Source: an uncultured bacterium
GTDB taxonomy: Bacteria > Chlamydiota > Chlamydiia > Chlamydiales > SM23-39
Length of the DNA: 64,000 bases
Direction of reading: 5' to 3'
Assembly (NCBI GenBank): GCA_963716985.1
Contig: OY970323.1
Span: 800,001-864,000, forward strand
Shown here: positions 2,456-4,243 of the stretch, piece by piece
Layout: each line of letters begins with the position of its first letter
Position numbering within the stretch: the stretch's first letter is position 1
The notes under the pieces: model-generated
What the model was told of the DNA's origin: nothing
Databases searched by the model: none
The model's input: the letters and a program-made list of their open reading frames with translations, nothing else
Program-made: the position numbers and the translations under genes

Positions 2456-2541
2456 ATCCCCATGCCGGAAGAATGCATTTTAGGGATTAAAAAAATCGCC
2501 TAAAAACAGATCCCCAAAATGGAAATCTCTTGTTTGGGGAT
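2456..2541. repeat. Two 32-bp palindromic units (ATCCCCAAA-N14-TTTGGGGAT), 54-bp period, upstream of the ATPase gene
   Basis: Units start at 2456 and 2510. Confidence 0.85.
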
Positions 2542-2597
2542 GGATTTTATTGCCGCTTTCTGCTTATCATATAGGCATGATTAATCGGGTGTAAAAA

Positions 2598-4031
2598 ATG
2601 ACAAATCCTCCATTCATTGGCCGTGAGCCAGAAATTGCTAGACTGAAGGGGCTCTTAAGTAAAAAAAGCGCAAGCCTCATTGTCGTTCGAGGACGACGAA
2701 GGATTGGCAAAAGCAGATTGCTTGCAGAGTTTGGGAAAGAAATGAAAAGCTTTTTCTTCTCAGGAATGCCTCCCATAAAAAAAACCAATGCTCGGCTGCA
2801 AAGAGAAGAATTTGCAGGTCAAATGGAAAGAATGGGGTTGCCTGGGGCTAAATCTGACGACTGGAGCAACCTTTTCTGGTCTTTATCAAAACATACTCAA
2901 AAGGGTCGTATCCTTGTCGTCTTTGATGAGATATCATGGATGGGGGGAAAGGATCCTGCATTTCTAGGAAAATTAAAAACTGCTTGGGATATGTATTTTA
3001 GCAAAAACCCCCACCTGATTATGGCTCTGTGCGGATCTATCTCTTCTTGGATTGAAGAAAATATCCTCAGCAGCACTGGATTTGTTGGAAGAGTCACTAT
3101 AGATCTTGTCTTAGAAGAGCTTCCCTTGAATGTTTGTAATGCTTTTTGGCGACCTAAAGAAAAACTCATTTCTGCTTATGAGAAATTTAAACTTTTGTCA
3201 ATCACTGGCGGAGTGCCACGCTATCTTGAAGAAATTAATCCTGAGTTGCCCGCAGAAAAAAATATTCAAAATCTTTGCTTTACTCGTGGAGGATTGCTCG
3301 TGCGAGAATTTGATGAGATTTTTTCTGACCTGTTTTCACGCCGTAGTACAAGTTATAAAGAAATAGTCACGTGTCTTGCAGAAGGACCTAGAGAGCTTTT
3401 GGAAATCTGTAAAGAACTTAAACAAACTCGTGGGGGACTGCGTAGTAAATATCTTGATGATTTGGTCAAAGCTGGATTTATTCAGAGAGATTTTTCTTGG
3501 CATCTACAGGATGAGAAGGAGACTAAAATAAGCCGCTTTCGCTTGAGTGATAATTATCTTCGGTTTTATTTGAAGTATATCTCTCGCAATCGTTCTAAAA
3601 TTCAAAAAGGAGATTTTACTCCCTCTGCATTGACAAATTTTCCTGGTTGGGAGGGCATCATGGGATTGCAGTTTGAAAATCTTGTCGTCCATAACCGAAA
3701 AACTGTTTTGAAGTTAATAGGAATATCTCCTGAAGAAGTAGTTATGGATGGTCCATTTTTTCAAAGGTCAACAAAAAAGCTTCCTGGATGTCAAATCGAC
3801 TATATGATTCAAACACGTTTTTCTACTTTATACATCTGCGAAATCAAATTTTCTAAGGATTCTATAGGAAAAAAAGTCATCGAAGAAATGAAAGAAAAAA
3901 TAAGTCGATTAAAATTACCTAAGCGCTTTTCTATTAGACCCATTCTTATCCATGTAAATGGAGTAGAGAGCGCTATGTTAGATGAAGGATATTTTGATAA
4001 GGTGATTGATTTCGGGCAGTTTTTAGAGTGA
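2598..4031 (+). CDS. AAA ATPase (archaeal-ATPase-like) with winged helix and C-terminal PD-(D/E)XK nuclease-like domain
   Basis: FIGRE, Walker A GRRRIGKS, Walker B VVFDE, GGVPRY, C-terminal QID...ICEIK. Confidence 0.9.
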   Translation: MTNPPFIGREPEIARLKGLLSKKSASLIVVRGRRRIGKSRLLAEFGKEMKSFFFSGMPPIKKTNARLQREEFAGQMERMGLPGAKSDDWSNLFWSLSKHTQKGRILVVFDEISWMGGKDPAFLGKLKTAWDMYFSKNPHLIMALCGSISSWIEENILSSTGFVGRVTIDLVLEELPLNVCNAFWRPKEKLISAYEKFKLLSITGGVPRYLEEINPELPAEKNIQNLCFTRGGLLVREFDEIFSDLFSRRSTSYKEIVTCLAEGPRELLEICKELKQTRGGLRSKYLDDLVKAGFIQRDFSWHLQDEKETKISRFRLSDNYLRFYLKYISRNRSKIQKGDFTPSALTNFPGWEGIMGLQFENLVVHNRKTVLKLIGISPEEVVMDGPFFQRSTKKLPGCQIDYMIQTRFSTLYICEIKFSKDSIGKKVIEEMKEKISRLKLPKRFSIRPILIHVNGVESAMLDEGYFDKVIDFGQFLE

Positions 4032-4049
4032 AATCCGCCTTATATTCTC

Positions 4050-4243
4050 ATCCCGAAACGAGCAAAAGCTATTTGGGGGATTAAAAATTTAGCTCAAAAA
4101 TACATCCCCAGAATGATATTTGTAGATTTACATATGTTTTTTATGACGAAAAAATATATCCGTAAATCGACTTTTTTCGATTTGGGGATGTCTTTTGTGC
4201 TCGAAAAATCCATCAGCAAACAGACATTTTGCTATTTGCGGAT
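4050..4243. repeat. Four 32-bp palindromic units, 54-bp period, downstream of the ATPase gene
   Basis: Units start at 4050, 4104, 4158 and 4212, with the same consensus as 2456-2541. Confidence 0.85.

Follow-up and report, generated by a model that had tools for sequence, protein, structure and literature searches.

At archaeal origins, dyad-containing ORB repeats lie beside orc1/cdc6, the gene encoding the Orc1/Cdc6 protein that binds them. Repeated dyad or direct sites at the promoter of the binder's own gene are also found in the self-operators of defence and addiction systems and in ParR-parC arrays, where paralogues have distinct specificities. CRISPR arrays are recognised by unique acquired spacers of ~26-72 bp and by cas genes or a leader, and integron attC sites by one imperfect palindrome that follows a promoterless ORF at its 3' side, next to an intI-type integrase. 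Here we describe phased palindromes that surround the gene for a predicted ATPase-nuclease in an uncultured chlamydial bacterium (SM23-39). The DNA analysed, hereafter the window, is a stretch of 64,000 nucleotides (GCA_963716985.1, contig OY970323.1, positions 800,001-864,000 of the forward strand).

The closest described protein family is PDC-S27, a single-gene phage-defence candidate in PADLOC (Payne et al., 10.1101/2024.01.29.577857; PMC12988326), in which an ATPase is fused to a PD-(D/E)XK domain (PMC12988326). With 4562 bacterial and 3503 archaeal instances it is among the commoner candidate defence genes (PMC12988326); PDCs are predictions, and validation is pending for most of them (PMC12988326; 10.1101/2024.01.29.577857). 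The gene studied here resembles PDC-S27 in a full-length HMM match, in the same architecture and in standing alone. The first-pass annotation, made from the sequence of the window, had proposed an uncharacterised system. Because the protein belongs to a published candidate family, the system is not wholly uncharacterised. The PDC-S27 descriptions consulted deal with the protein only and mention no cis-element. No account of these palindrome arrays was found in the open-access literature searched.

Like Orc1/Cdc6 (2v1u, 2qby), which are among its Foldseek matches, the present protein has its winged helix after an AAA+ module. It differs from them in adding a PD-(D/E)XK nuclease; its units, repeated in tandem every 54-55 bp, border a promoter, and its gene has many paralogues per genome and is unlinked to replication genes. 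In contrast to self-operators and ParR-parC arrays, the presumed binder is a large AAA+ ATPase-nuclease rather than a small dedicated repressor, and the sites stand out by their unusual length (32-33 bp) and by a strict phase of five helical turns. The locus shares with CRISPR its regularly spaced palindromic repeats and differing intervening sequence; however, the present arrays have 2-4 units, lie upstream of a promoter and contain 14-15-bp palindromic cores.

The ATPase-nuclease gene and its flanking palindromes

The locus contains the following features.

2402..2433, no strand: decayed distal upstream unit, in 54-bp phase, recognisable only in the right-arm region ...CGATTTGCCGC
2456..2487, no strand: upstream unit 2, imperfect palindrome ATCCCCATG...TTTAGGGAT, 3 mismatches to the motif
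2510..2541, no strand: promoter-proximal unit ATCCCCAAA-N14-TTTGGGGAT, outer arms perfect, 0 mismatches
2541..2570, + strand: promoter inferred from conservation, -35-like TGGATT at 2541-2546, 18-bp spacer, -10-like TATCAT at 2565-2570
2598..4031, + strand: gene for a 477-aa protein, AAA+ ATPase 1-245, winged helix ~248-316, helical linker 319-374, PD-(D/E)XK ~377-477
4050..4081, no strand: downstream unit 1 (ATCCCG...GGGGGAT), 2 mismatches, start 19 bp past the stop codon
4104..4135, no strand: downstream unit 2, right arm decayed here (TTTACATAT), in phase, 5 mismatches (by eye)
4158..4189, no strand: downstream unit 3, hybrid arms ATCCGT...GGGGAT, 2 mismatches
4212..4243, no strand: downstream unit 4 (ATCAGC...GCGGAT), arms of another specificity class, 3 mismatches

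Domain and structure comparisons confirmed that the protein is an ORC/STAND-like AAA+ ATPase with a winged helix and a predicted PD-(D/E)XK nuclease, in agreement with the first-pass call. It matched PF01637 (E 1.9e-12, 47.9 bits versus a cut-off of 33.2) and, with residues 6-471 on positions 4-468 of 474, the PADLOC PDC-S27 profile PDLC04984 (E 1.5e-81, 272.7 bits). The ATPase core, helical lid and winged helix fold are present in the AlphaFold2 model (pLDDT 85.5), for which Foldseek returned 2qen (E 9.8e-10), 2fna, ORC/Cdc6 subunits and NLR (plant)/Apaf-1. Over the ATPase and winged helix, the best structural matches (TM 0.63-0.66, target-normalised) were the archaeal Walker-type ATPases PABY2304 (2qen) and SSO1545 (2fna) of the same Pfam family PF01637, structural-genomics entries of ~350 residues that are without the C-terminal nuclease. 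The modelled C-terminal domain matched NucS 2vld (Z 9.8, rmsd 3.0 over 104 residues) and AF1548 (Z 9.4), with further structural matches to Can2, McrC, LlaBIII, Card1, SduA and FokI. It has the PD-(D/E)XK core fold and the D...(D/E)xK motif in the model, and is a predicted nuclease. Across 59 sequences, K38, D110-E111, D401, E415 and K417 were invariant, as was G32-R-R-R-I-G-K38-S39; in our reading, G32...K38-S39 would form Walker A and D110-E111 Walker B.

Pfam DUF234 (PF03008) was absent among the protein's matches at E <=0.01, and the C terminus was therefore not assigned to it. NCBIfam held no family for the ATPase, and a PDB sequence search gave chance-level matches only. A homodimer prediction, run without controls, scored 0.00 against a mark of 0.42, which counts neither way as to binding. 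RNA from three metatranscriptome-type runs contained four short contigs at least 99% alike, all within the ORF (2778-2928, 2961-3108, 3225-3583 and 3631-3799); DNA carry-over is possible, and the contigs show no transcript start or end. No contig covered the arrays, from which nothing follows about their transcription.

The array flanks the ORF on both sides. A search with ATCCCCAAA-N14-TTTGGGGAT at no more than 3 mismatches found matches at 2456, 2510, 4050, 4158 and 4212, five versus 0.03 expected, and five or more occurred in 0/100 shuffles. The first-pass annotation had listed six units at a 54-bp period; five were thus recovered, and the sixth (4104) is in phase but decayed. Unit starts are 54 bp apart within the upstream block and within the downstream block, and the two blocks are out of mutual phase (4050-2510 = 1540 bp, ~28.5 periods). 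A register print bore out that the linkers between units are semi-conserved; they are A/T-rich, with T-runs and A-runs. Tandem Repeats Finder missed the array, its units being too divergent.

Each unit is a single 32-33-bp palindrome whose outer arm varies and is followed by AAA, the TCGACA-www-TGTCGA core, TTT and the matching arm. It had been noted at first pass that the 14-bp cores all differ, which is correct within the window; they nonetheless derive by decay from a single palindrome, TCGACAwwwTGTCGA, and in some relatives this core is the same in every unit. Since the cores are variants of one palindrome and the 14-15-bp sequences are conserved between orthologues, they are not unique spacers, and the array cannot be read as ~40-bp repeats separated by such spacers. 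A CRISPR array, already dismissed by the earlier annotation, was rejected on the same grounds of short, conserved cores with one consensus, and no cas family was present among the neighbours within the annotated 20 kb. An integron attC cassette was likewise rejected: the units are tandem, mainly 5' of the ORF and abut the promoter, and the neighbouring recombinase, absent at most loci, reached 29.6 bits versus an integron-integrase cut-off of 265.

The units are related to one another and to those of other loci. The distal upstream unit is part of a direct-repeat family (D3, 2423-2450 versus 4178-4205, 75%), and in repeat D1 the segment that runs from downstream unit 1 through its linker into the next unit is 70% identical to 2455-2521. 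Downstream unit 1 is kept in orthologues at +22 (L026, L027, L115 and L144). Downstream unit 2 is intact in orthologues, with hybrid arms ATCCCC...GCGGAT and 1 mismatch in its orthologue in G007; in the window, units 2 and 3 form a nested palindrome of ~86 bp (inverted repeat I1, 4097-4142 versus 4151-4196). The segment 4158-4244 has 79.5% identity to the distal units of the upstream array of another locus (L050).

Every unit can be drawn as a hairpin between an A-run and a T-run, and the downstream array would fall in the 3' UTR. The units might thus act as RNA or single-strand hairpins, serving as bidirectional terminators, as insulators or as a processed small-RNA partner of the nuclease. 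Compared with shuffles, DNA-hairpin folding was good for 2510, 4158 and 4212 (z = -2.7 to -3.9, with -3.9 for 4158); in contrast, 4104 was shuffle-like and 2456, as single-stranded DNA, folded no better than shuffles. The stem of the inner core is of poor stability, with many unpaired cells. Rfam 15 gave best matches of 23-26 bits against gathering scores of 50-100, and thus no family at threshold. A simple promoter/terminator scan of 2100-4450 called no downstream unit a terminator on the + strand; it also left the inferred promoter uncalled. The upstream array precedes the conserved promoter, and a terminator needs neither conserved ATC, AAA and core letters nor a strict 54-55-bp phase. We therefore consider a hairpin role very improbable; the processed structured RNA partner suggested at first pass, in particular, finds no support in the place of the promoter, in Rfam or in the folding, two of the six units being like shuffles.

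Promoter placement across homologous loci

Homologous loci were counted among the matches listed, ~850 more relatives (338 + 520) having been detected. At least one strict unit was found at -300..-40 in 63 of the 73 listed loci with at least 300 bp upstream, and the other 10 all carry 2-3 variant-arm units (by eye). Unit density at -300..-40 was 6.4 per kb versus 0.04-0.06 per kb in the far flanks. Among the matches listed, offsets from the ATG peak at about -85/-90, -140/-145 and -195; in the window, the proximal unit starts 88 bp before the ATG, which is the modal offset among the listed loci. A motif-free palindrome scan gave the same picture, with at least one long palindrome upstream in 115/134 of the loci listed, compared to 1/134 in coding and 17/134 in shuffled upstream DNA. 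The homologue comparison proposed by the first-pass annotation thus came out positive: motif and phase go with the protein, which favours its reading of a phased binding array for the protein. On comparative grounds, phased palindromes are a hallmark of the stand-alone ATPase-nuclease family in environmental chlamydiae. Downstream units were seen in 19/139 listed loci versus 6/133 in a control window, and the downstream array is specific to this window's clade.

The position of the units relative to the promoter of the gene, itself inferred from conservation, is fixed. Among the listed loci, TTGATT (at least 5/6 positions) runs from the last base of the proximal unit in 58/68, and TAnnnT follows 16-18 bp after it in 57/68. 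The window's copy is weak by consensus (TGGATT), its first T (2541) being also the base with which the proximal unit ends. In more distant homologues (46-58% identity) the palindromes differ but repeat with the same ~54-56-bp period, and their units overlie the -35, -10 or start codon in a repressor geometry.

The spacing of the units also bears on whether the array is functionless debris, either a decayed 18-aa coding repeat or a REP/MITE-like repeat. The units in the window are imperfect, and an ORF (4113-4346) overlaps the downstream array. However, among 85 neighbouring unit pairs in the matches listed, starts were 54 bp apart in 26 and 55 bp in 32, and the mix of 54, 55 and 56 bp is incompatible with a reading frame; together with the joint change of both arms, this led us to reject a coding repeat, which the first-pass annotation had named as a possible objection. 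Its other objection, a motif scattered over the genome, did not hold either: the CCC-type motif (no more than 3 mismatches) occurs 9 times in 2.07 Mb, 5 of them at this locus, and therefore the palindrome is not a genome-wide repeat, and a REP element was rejected. As the place of the array is moreover fixed in >100 loci of many genera, the chance that it is debris is close to nil.

An array of this kind could alternatively serve as an assembly or loading platform, on whose phased sites the ATPase oligomerises into a standby immune nuclease or an origin- or centromere-like complex, with any effect on transcription being secondary. The fold, closest to archaeal Walker ATPases, ORC/Cdc6 and STAND proteins, is in line with such a platform, as are the archaeal ORB-repeat parallel, the strict 54-55-bp phasing, the arrays on both sides of the gene in this clade and the A/T-rich linkers with T- and A-runs. 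Nevertheless, the fixed abutment to a conserved -35 and the sites over the -35, -10 or ATG in distant homologues argue for promoter control. The cassette is not accompanied by replication genes, and no unwinding element was evident. For an origin, repeats beside an ORC-like gene are present; the many unrelated chromosomal contexts of the cassette and its several gene copies, up to 7-12 per small genome, speak against one. We regard the platform as unlikely.

Outer arms and the winged helix

We analysed the outer arms in 92 of the listed loci in which the units could be anchored on the -35-like motif alone. The 6-nt arms were complementary at five or more of six positions in 56/92 loci, as compared to 1/92 in a control with the frame slid by 9 nt, and at least 37 distinct outer arms occurred. 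The inner core, which was not used in choosing units, also paired above slid controls. Arms differ between lineages while symmetry is retained, and the class of arm goes with the clade of the protein. In this genome, each of the three paralogues (~72% identity) has an arm class to itself (CCC, TGC-type and AGCAGC). Identical arm classes within one assembly were found in 0/18 pairs versus 1.25 expected, a comparison without statistical power.

Arm-informative columns of the protein were densest in the winged helix (5/73), compared to 4/249 in the AAA+ part and 0/101 in the nuclease. Residue 278 caps the N terminus of the recognition helix. Among the matches listed, it is Arg or Lys in 29/30 loci with C at arm position 5, in 0/47 with G and in 2/24 with A. 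One locus (L051), nested in a Gln-278 clade, nonetheless combines CCC arms with Arg-278. The link is largely clade-structured, with 6 independent contrasts on well-supported branches: ~3.5 had the same direction, 0.2 the opposite and 2.3 no difference, and the sign test was not significant (median p 0.25). APC-corrected mutual information was diffuse, columns outside the winged helix, such as 121 and 208, also being high. We propose as a candidate recognition rule that a basic residue 278 may correspond to a G:C pair at arm position 5.

These data bear on whether another host factor, such as a global regulator or nucleoid protein, occupies the units. The inner core TCGACA-www-TGTCGA is common to many lineages, as a shared factor would predict, and the ATPase is a putative binder. 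However, the outer arms are hypervariable among the paralogues of one genome and track the ATPase lineage. The generic motif shows no enrichment beyond background elsewhere in the genome (50 matches versus 23 in a reversed control), 9/50 lying at three ATPase loci. No other conserved gene is nearby: the largest flanking-ORF family is present at 4/80 of the loci listed, and the ATPase-nuclease gene is the sole constant partner of the array. A separate host factor is thus a poor candidate, and we rate it very unlikely.

A putative self-operator and the possible exchange of cassettes

We hold, with slightly better than even confidence, that the repeats are operator-type sites bound by the protein encoded between them, leading to autoregulation. 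The evidence is comparative sequence analysis throughout, and from it we infer that the binder is the encoded protein, that it binds as a symmetric oligomer, and which way it regulates. A symmetric pair of subunits, or a pair of pairs, would read each 32-33-bp dyad. The winged helix would contact the variable outer arm (6 nt plus AAA), and some conserved part of the protein, possibly a nuclease dimer, would sit over the TCGACA-www-TGTCGA core. With 2-4 units at 54-55 bp, about five helical turns, the bound proteins would all lie on one face of the DNA, so that the AAA+ modules could assemble cooperatively beside the gene's own promoter. A potentially dangerous ATPase-nuclease would in this way regulate its own gene, most likely by repressing it. 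Because the operators are upstream of the -35 in this subfamily, activation would fit as well as repression. In this clade, the downstream array might, speculatively, provide a second docking block for gene looping or insulation.

By analogy, the ORC/Cdc6-like fold may count for the self-operator reading, given that the winged helix of ORC/Cdc6 binds DNA beside its own gene. The winged helix of STAND ATPases usually works as a switch rather than reading DNA. Arms of another class and hybrid arms are frequent among distal and downstream units, and a simple self-operator model does not account for them.

Such arms are, on the other hand, consistent with the arrays being the ends at which the single-gene cassette would be exchanged or inserted, through homologous recombination at shared cores or homing-like cutting with the cassette's own nuclease. 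The arrays are mosaics in which arm classes mix and hybrid units occur, and the downstream units of one locus (L040) are of a foreign class. The similarity of the cassette to four relatives (L025, L101, L028 and L031) starts inside upstream unit 2, at 2472-2479, and its similarity to relatives stops at the stop codon or within the downstream array. One portal-X-recombinase slot is occupied by ATPases of different arm classes in L050, L059, L034 and L090, and L031 has the same pair of units on either side of its gene. Another paralogue is the sole gene between duplicate clpX-like 3' ends, and one genome (G001) has a solo unit without the gene. However, the paralogues within a genome are old (~72% identity) and show no sign of recent transposition, a downstream unit is present in just 19/139 listed loci versus 6/133 in the control, and the upstream units keep their place at the promoter rather than following a variable insertion point. 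When GC-rich hairpins flanking the cassette were examined as a genome-wide family, one related copy only was found. Exchange as the role of the arrays is rather improbable in our view; it is compatible with the operator reading, and the two may hold together.

A more elaborate scheme, which we consider doubtful, would combine these elements in a self-addressed nucleoprotein device, a kind not known to have been described for defence systems. Through residue 278 and its wing, a re-programmable winged helix would read the 6-nt arm and hold the ATPase-nuclease on private sites, five helical turns apart, before its gene and, in this clade, also behind it. The complex would stay DNA-bound, looped and silent until infection or nucleotide depletion released or activated the nuclease, several orthogonal versions would coexist per genome, and the cores would double as crossover points for cassette swaps in phage-plasmid cargo bays.

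What is new here is a conserved phased cis-element that travels with a PDC-S27 candidate gene, and the co-variation of its arrays with the protein, for which residue 278 and arm position 5 offer a simple candidate rule. The family would then represent a natural set of putative orthogonal protein/site pairs on an ORC-like scaffold. If the binding is true, it would also guide correct heterologous expression in phage challenge, where a clone with just ~150 bp upstream of the gene would truncate the array, and it would explain how a toxic ATPase-nuclease is restrained.

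Units flanking the ATPase-nuclease gene

The palindromic motif ATCCCCAAA-N14-TTTGGGGAT, with three mismatches at most, starts at 2456, 2510, 4050, 4158, and 4212; five matches compare with 0.03 expected, and this number was reached in 0 of 100 shuffles. The repeated units described in the first-pass annotation were visible both when 2000–4800 was read through and when it was printed in a 54-bp register, and Tandem Repeats Finder missed the array. Two more units lie in phase:

2402, further unit, strongly decayed, also seen as the direct-repeat family D3
4104, unit with a right arm decayed in the window

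The 4104 unit is intact in the 96% identical orthologue from the related genome G007. Downstream units 1 and 2 share 70% identity with the upstream pair (direct-repeat family D1). In the source genome (one contig, 2.07 Mb, 44% G+C), the motif with CCC-type outer arms occurs nine times, five of them at this locus. Thus, the array is not a dispersed repeat, nor is its motif scattered genome-wide. Elsewhere in the window, 50694–50810 carries a 52-bp tandem repeat of 2.3 copies with 84% matches.

The units enclose a single gene:

2598–4031, ORF of 477 residues

The product matched PF01637 (E 1.9e-12) and, over its full length, the PADLOC candidate defence family PDC-S27 (E 1.5e-81), while neither an NCBIfam model nor a solved structure was matched by its sequence. 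The AlphaFold2 model, computed from an alignment of 59 homologues (A1) and reaching a pLDDT of 85.5, has the following parts:

residues 1–245, AAA+ module
residues about 248–316, winged helix (recognition helix 280–292, wing 295–316)
after the winged helix, helical linker
C-terminal, alpha/beta domain

By Foldseek, the AAA+ and winged-helix parts group with ORC/Cdc6, STAND proteins, and two archaeal Walker ATPases, 2qen and 2fna. Modelled alone, the C-terminal domain matched NucS (Z 9.8), AF1548, Can2, McrC, LlaBIII, Card1, SduA, and FokI, and D401, E415, and K417 are invariant in A1. The PF01637 match, the model, the structural matches, and the invariant residues thus confirm the earlier call of an AAA ATPase with a winged helix and a PD-(D/E)XK domain.

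Spread and symmetry of the units

The protein has seven matches in its own genome; of 41 related genomes, 18 carry matches, as many as 12 in a single genome. Two paralogues in its own genome (1177214 and 1447619), both 72% identical to the window protein, each have their own upstream array, with ATCTGC...GCAGAT and AGCAGC...GCTGCT arms. We used 80 of the 338 loci detected in a one-genome-per-species scan, nearly all of these 80 coming from environmental Chlamydiota assemblies, together with 80 of 520 detected in metagenomes and 10 from viral contigs. Of the 73 loci whose upstream DNA was long enough, 63 carry at least one match to a strict pattern (ATC-xyz-AAA, N14-15, TTT-z'y'x'-GAT, at most two mismatches) at -300..-40; its density there is 6.4 per kb versus 0.04–0.06 per kb in the far flanks, and its starts gather at about -85/-90, -140/-145, and -195. 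Read by eye, each of the 10 remaining loci also has units, two or three in number and with different arms. A motif-free scan for long palindromes was positive upstream of the gene in 115/134 loci, as compared to 1/134 in a coding control and 17/134 in shuffled upstream DNA. Among 85 neighbouring pairs, the start-to-start spacing was most often 54 bp (26 pairs) or 55 bp (32 pairs); values of 27–28 bp represent linker dyads. The check on homologues proposed at first pass is thus positive, and the array belongs to the ATPase-nuclease family and not to the window locus alone.

Distant homologues (46–58% identity) have other palindromes, still with a period of about 54–56 bp, for example GGAGAC-N22-GTCTCC, CCTCACAAG-ATTGACATTTGTCGAT-CTTATGAGG, and TATCACCAAA.... 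Outside Chlamydiota, a 46.5% identical homologue on the Desulfosarcina sp. BuS5 plasmid (L195; NZ_CP087953.1, 33775–33860) has the repeat CAC(A/C)AAATCAACG twice, at a distance of exactly 54 bp, around the -10 region and the ribosome-binding site; the 54-bp period thus reaches beyond the chlamydial subfamily. In a same-genus genome with only fragments of the ATPase gene, a lone perfect unit, ATCCGCAAA...TTTGCGGAT, stands between genes (L196; G001:C39:3268–3299); it could be a relic, or else a site in independent use.

Aligned units consist of a 6-nt outer arm (mostly ATC plus a variable triplet), AAA, a core near TCGACA-www-TGTCGA, TTT, and the complementary arm. At L051, L071, and L118, the entire 33 bp form a perfect palindrome, the same in both units. 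Thus, the 14-bp cores in the window, at first taken to be unique, are decayed forms of one core, and their conservation between orthologues shows that they do not represent spacers. The absence of cas genes and cores that are not acquired spacers bear out the earlier exclusion of CRISPR. A decayed coding repeat is likewise rejected, as the mixed 54-, 55-, and 56-bp spacing is incompatible with any reading frame.

Because the aligned units had been picked by arm complementarity, the symmetry test was rerun with the -35-like motif as the only anchor. Across 92 loci with 37 different arms, the arms were complementary at five or more of six positions in 56, as compared to one with the frame slid by 9 nt. 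Both arms therefore change together, which shows the dyad symmetry of the units to be under selection.

Promoter geometry and proposed arm recognition

We compared 68 loci with a proximal unit ending 45–62 nt before the ATG. TTGATT (at least 5/6) starts at the last base of that unit in 58 of them, and 57 have TAnnnT 16–18 bp beyond the TTGATT place and then a Shine-Dalgarno-like purine run. The window counterparts are:

2541–2546, -35-like hexamer TGGATT (conserved TTGATT)
2565–2570, -10-like hexamer TATCAT (conserved TAnnnT)

The window copy is weak by consensus and was not called by a simple promoter scan. In distant homologues, the unit holds the -35, takes in the ATG, or falls in the stretch from the -10 to the start codon, a placement that is operator geometry of a putatively repressing kind. 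With slightly better than even confidence, we take the arrays to be self-operators; that the protein binds them, its stoichiometry on them, and whether it represses or activates are inferred. An assembly platform with no part in transcription is unlikely for units placed in this way.

The processed structured RNA partner suggested at first pass did not hold up: no Rfam family reached threshold, the promoter follows the upstream array instead of preceding it, the single-strand folding of two of the six units is at the level of shuffles, and no terminators were called at the downstream units. Hairpin RNA or terminators are a very unlikely reading of these palindromes. Four short contigs from RNA-type libraries, at least 99% alike, cover the ORF interior only, with the transcript start beyond their reach.

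No neighbouring gene is conserved, the largest flanking-ORF family occurring in 4 of 80 loci, and the ATPase gene is the only constant partner of the array. Sites for a host factor are a very unlikely reading of units whose arm classes track protein clades. Columns informative on the arm (normalised MI at least 0.6) number 5/73 in the winged helix, 4/249 in the ATPase, and 0/101 in the nuclease; in an APC-corrected scan, some columns outside the winged helix also rank. Residue 278, just before the recognition helix, was compared with position 5 of the 6-nt arm in the 107 loci where a proximal unit was called. Arg or Lys occupies it in 29/30 loci with C at this arm position, 0/47 with G, and 2/24 with A. 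That a basic side chain reads guanine is a familiar rule. L051 combines CCC arms with Arg-278, though placed within a Gln-278 clade, and in a distant subfamily, Lys-278 accompanies ACC arms. The association is open to descent, because the tree holds only six well-supported independent contrasts (about 3.5 in the same direction, 0.2 opposite, and 2.3 with no difference), with which a sign test is unable to reach significance. Paralogues of one assembly shared an arm class in 0 of 18 pairs versus 1.25 expected by chance, too few for test power.

Downstream units and the phage-like setting

Downstream units were found in 19/139 loci versus 6/133 in a control window further downstream, mostly in the window's own clade (L026/27, L028, L031, L033, L079, L115, L116, and L144), where they start 12–26 bp past the stop codon. 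In the closest orthologues, the hybrid arms of downstream units 2 and 3 (CCC|GCG and then CGC|GGG) are conserved, and the two units make up a nested palindrome some 86 bp long (inverted repeat I1). The downstream array may serve in looping or in insulation from the convergent recombinase gene, or be a relic of cassette exchange. Distal upstream units are often of another arm class than the proximal one (e.g., L050, -258 and -204), and at L040, a gene of the AGCAGC class is followed by CCG/CCC-class units (+19..+160). Such mosaics suggest recombination within arrays or cross-talk between paralogues.

Similarity to related cassettes starts inside the distal upstream unit (2472–2479) and stops at the stop codon or within the downstream array; thus, the moving unit comprises array and gene. 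That the units are themselves cassette-exchange sites is quite unlikely. The surroundings are phage-like:

1–782, end of an IS element of the DDE_5 type, of which the genome has at least 13 near-identical (98–99.9%) copies
787–1350, beta-lactamase-like ORF fragment, its region abutted by the IS element
1023–2090, portal gene, truncated by the IS element
4412–5389, tyrosine recombinase gene, convergent, on the other side of the cassette from the portal gene
6645–7994, large terminase gene, beyond the recombinase

Beyond the recombinase lie a GNAT gene, terminase genes, ParB-methylase, and DUF1064. The phage-like remnant (1023–10212) includes DUF1064 and a ParB-N6 methylase together with the large terminase and a possible small one, all parted from the portal gene by the GNAT gene, a SMEK-like fragment, the recombinase, and the ATPase cassette. 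L050 and L059 repeat the order portal, array, ATPase, recombinase, their ATPases being of other arm classes, and L034 and L090 have portal, array, ATPase.

The whole cassette is bracketed, next to the recombinase 3' end, by GC-rich hairpins (CGCGCGG...CCGCGCG) and an inverted repeat (2343–2359 versus 4348–4364, 88% complementary), located at 2283–2323, 2343–2359, and 4330–4368; recombination or inversion could take place here. The sole related copy in the genome (1838078–1838145) adjoins a 140-bp recombinase-gene fragment and a 28% identical ATPase paralogue. Another paralogue (1842395–1843813, 53% identical) stands alone between two ~230-bp copies of the 3' end of a clpX-like gene (region 1841900–1844400), an arrangement that a small integrative element might have left behind. 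A pair of TGGAG...CTCCA palindromes, spaced by about 54 bp, belongs to this paralogue, the second member reaching the ATG.

The gene is a member of a known candidate family, PDC-S27, in which, according to PMC12988326, an ATPase and a PD-(D/E)XK domain are fused. The preprint defining the candidates (10.1101/2024.01.29.577857) reports 145 of them, predicted from their embedding in other defence systems. The passages found in openly accessible main texts make no mention of a cis-acting array, and we therefore count the palindrome arrays, phased and co-varying as they are, as new for this family.
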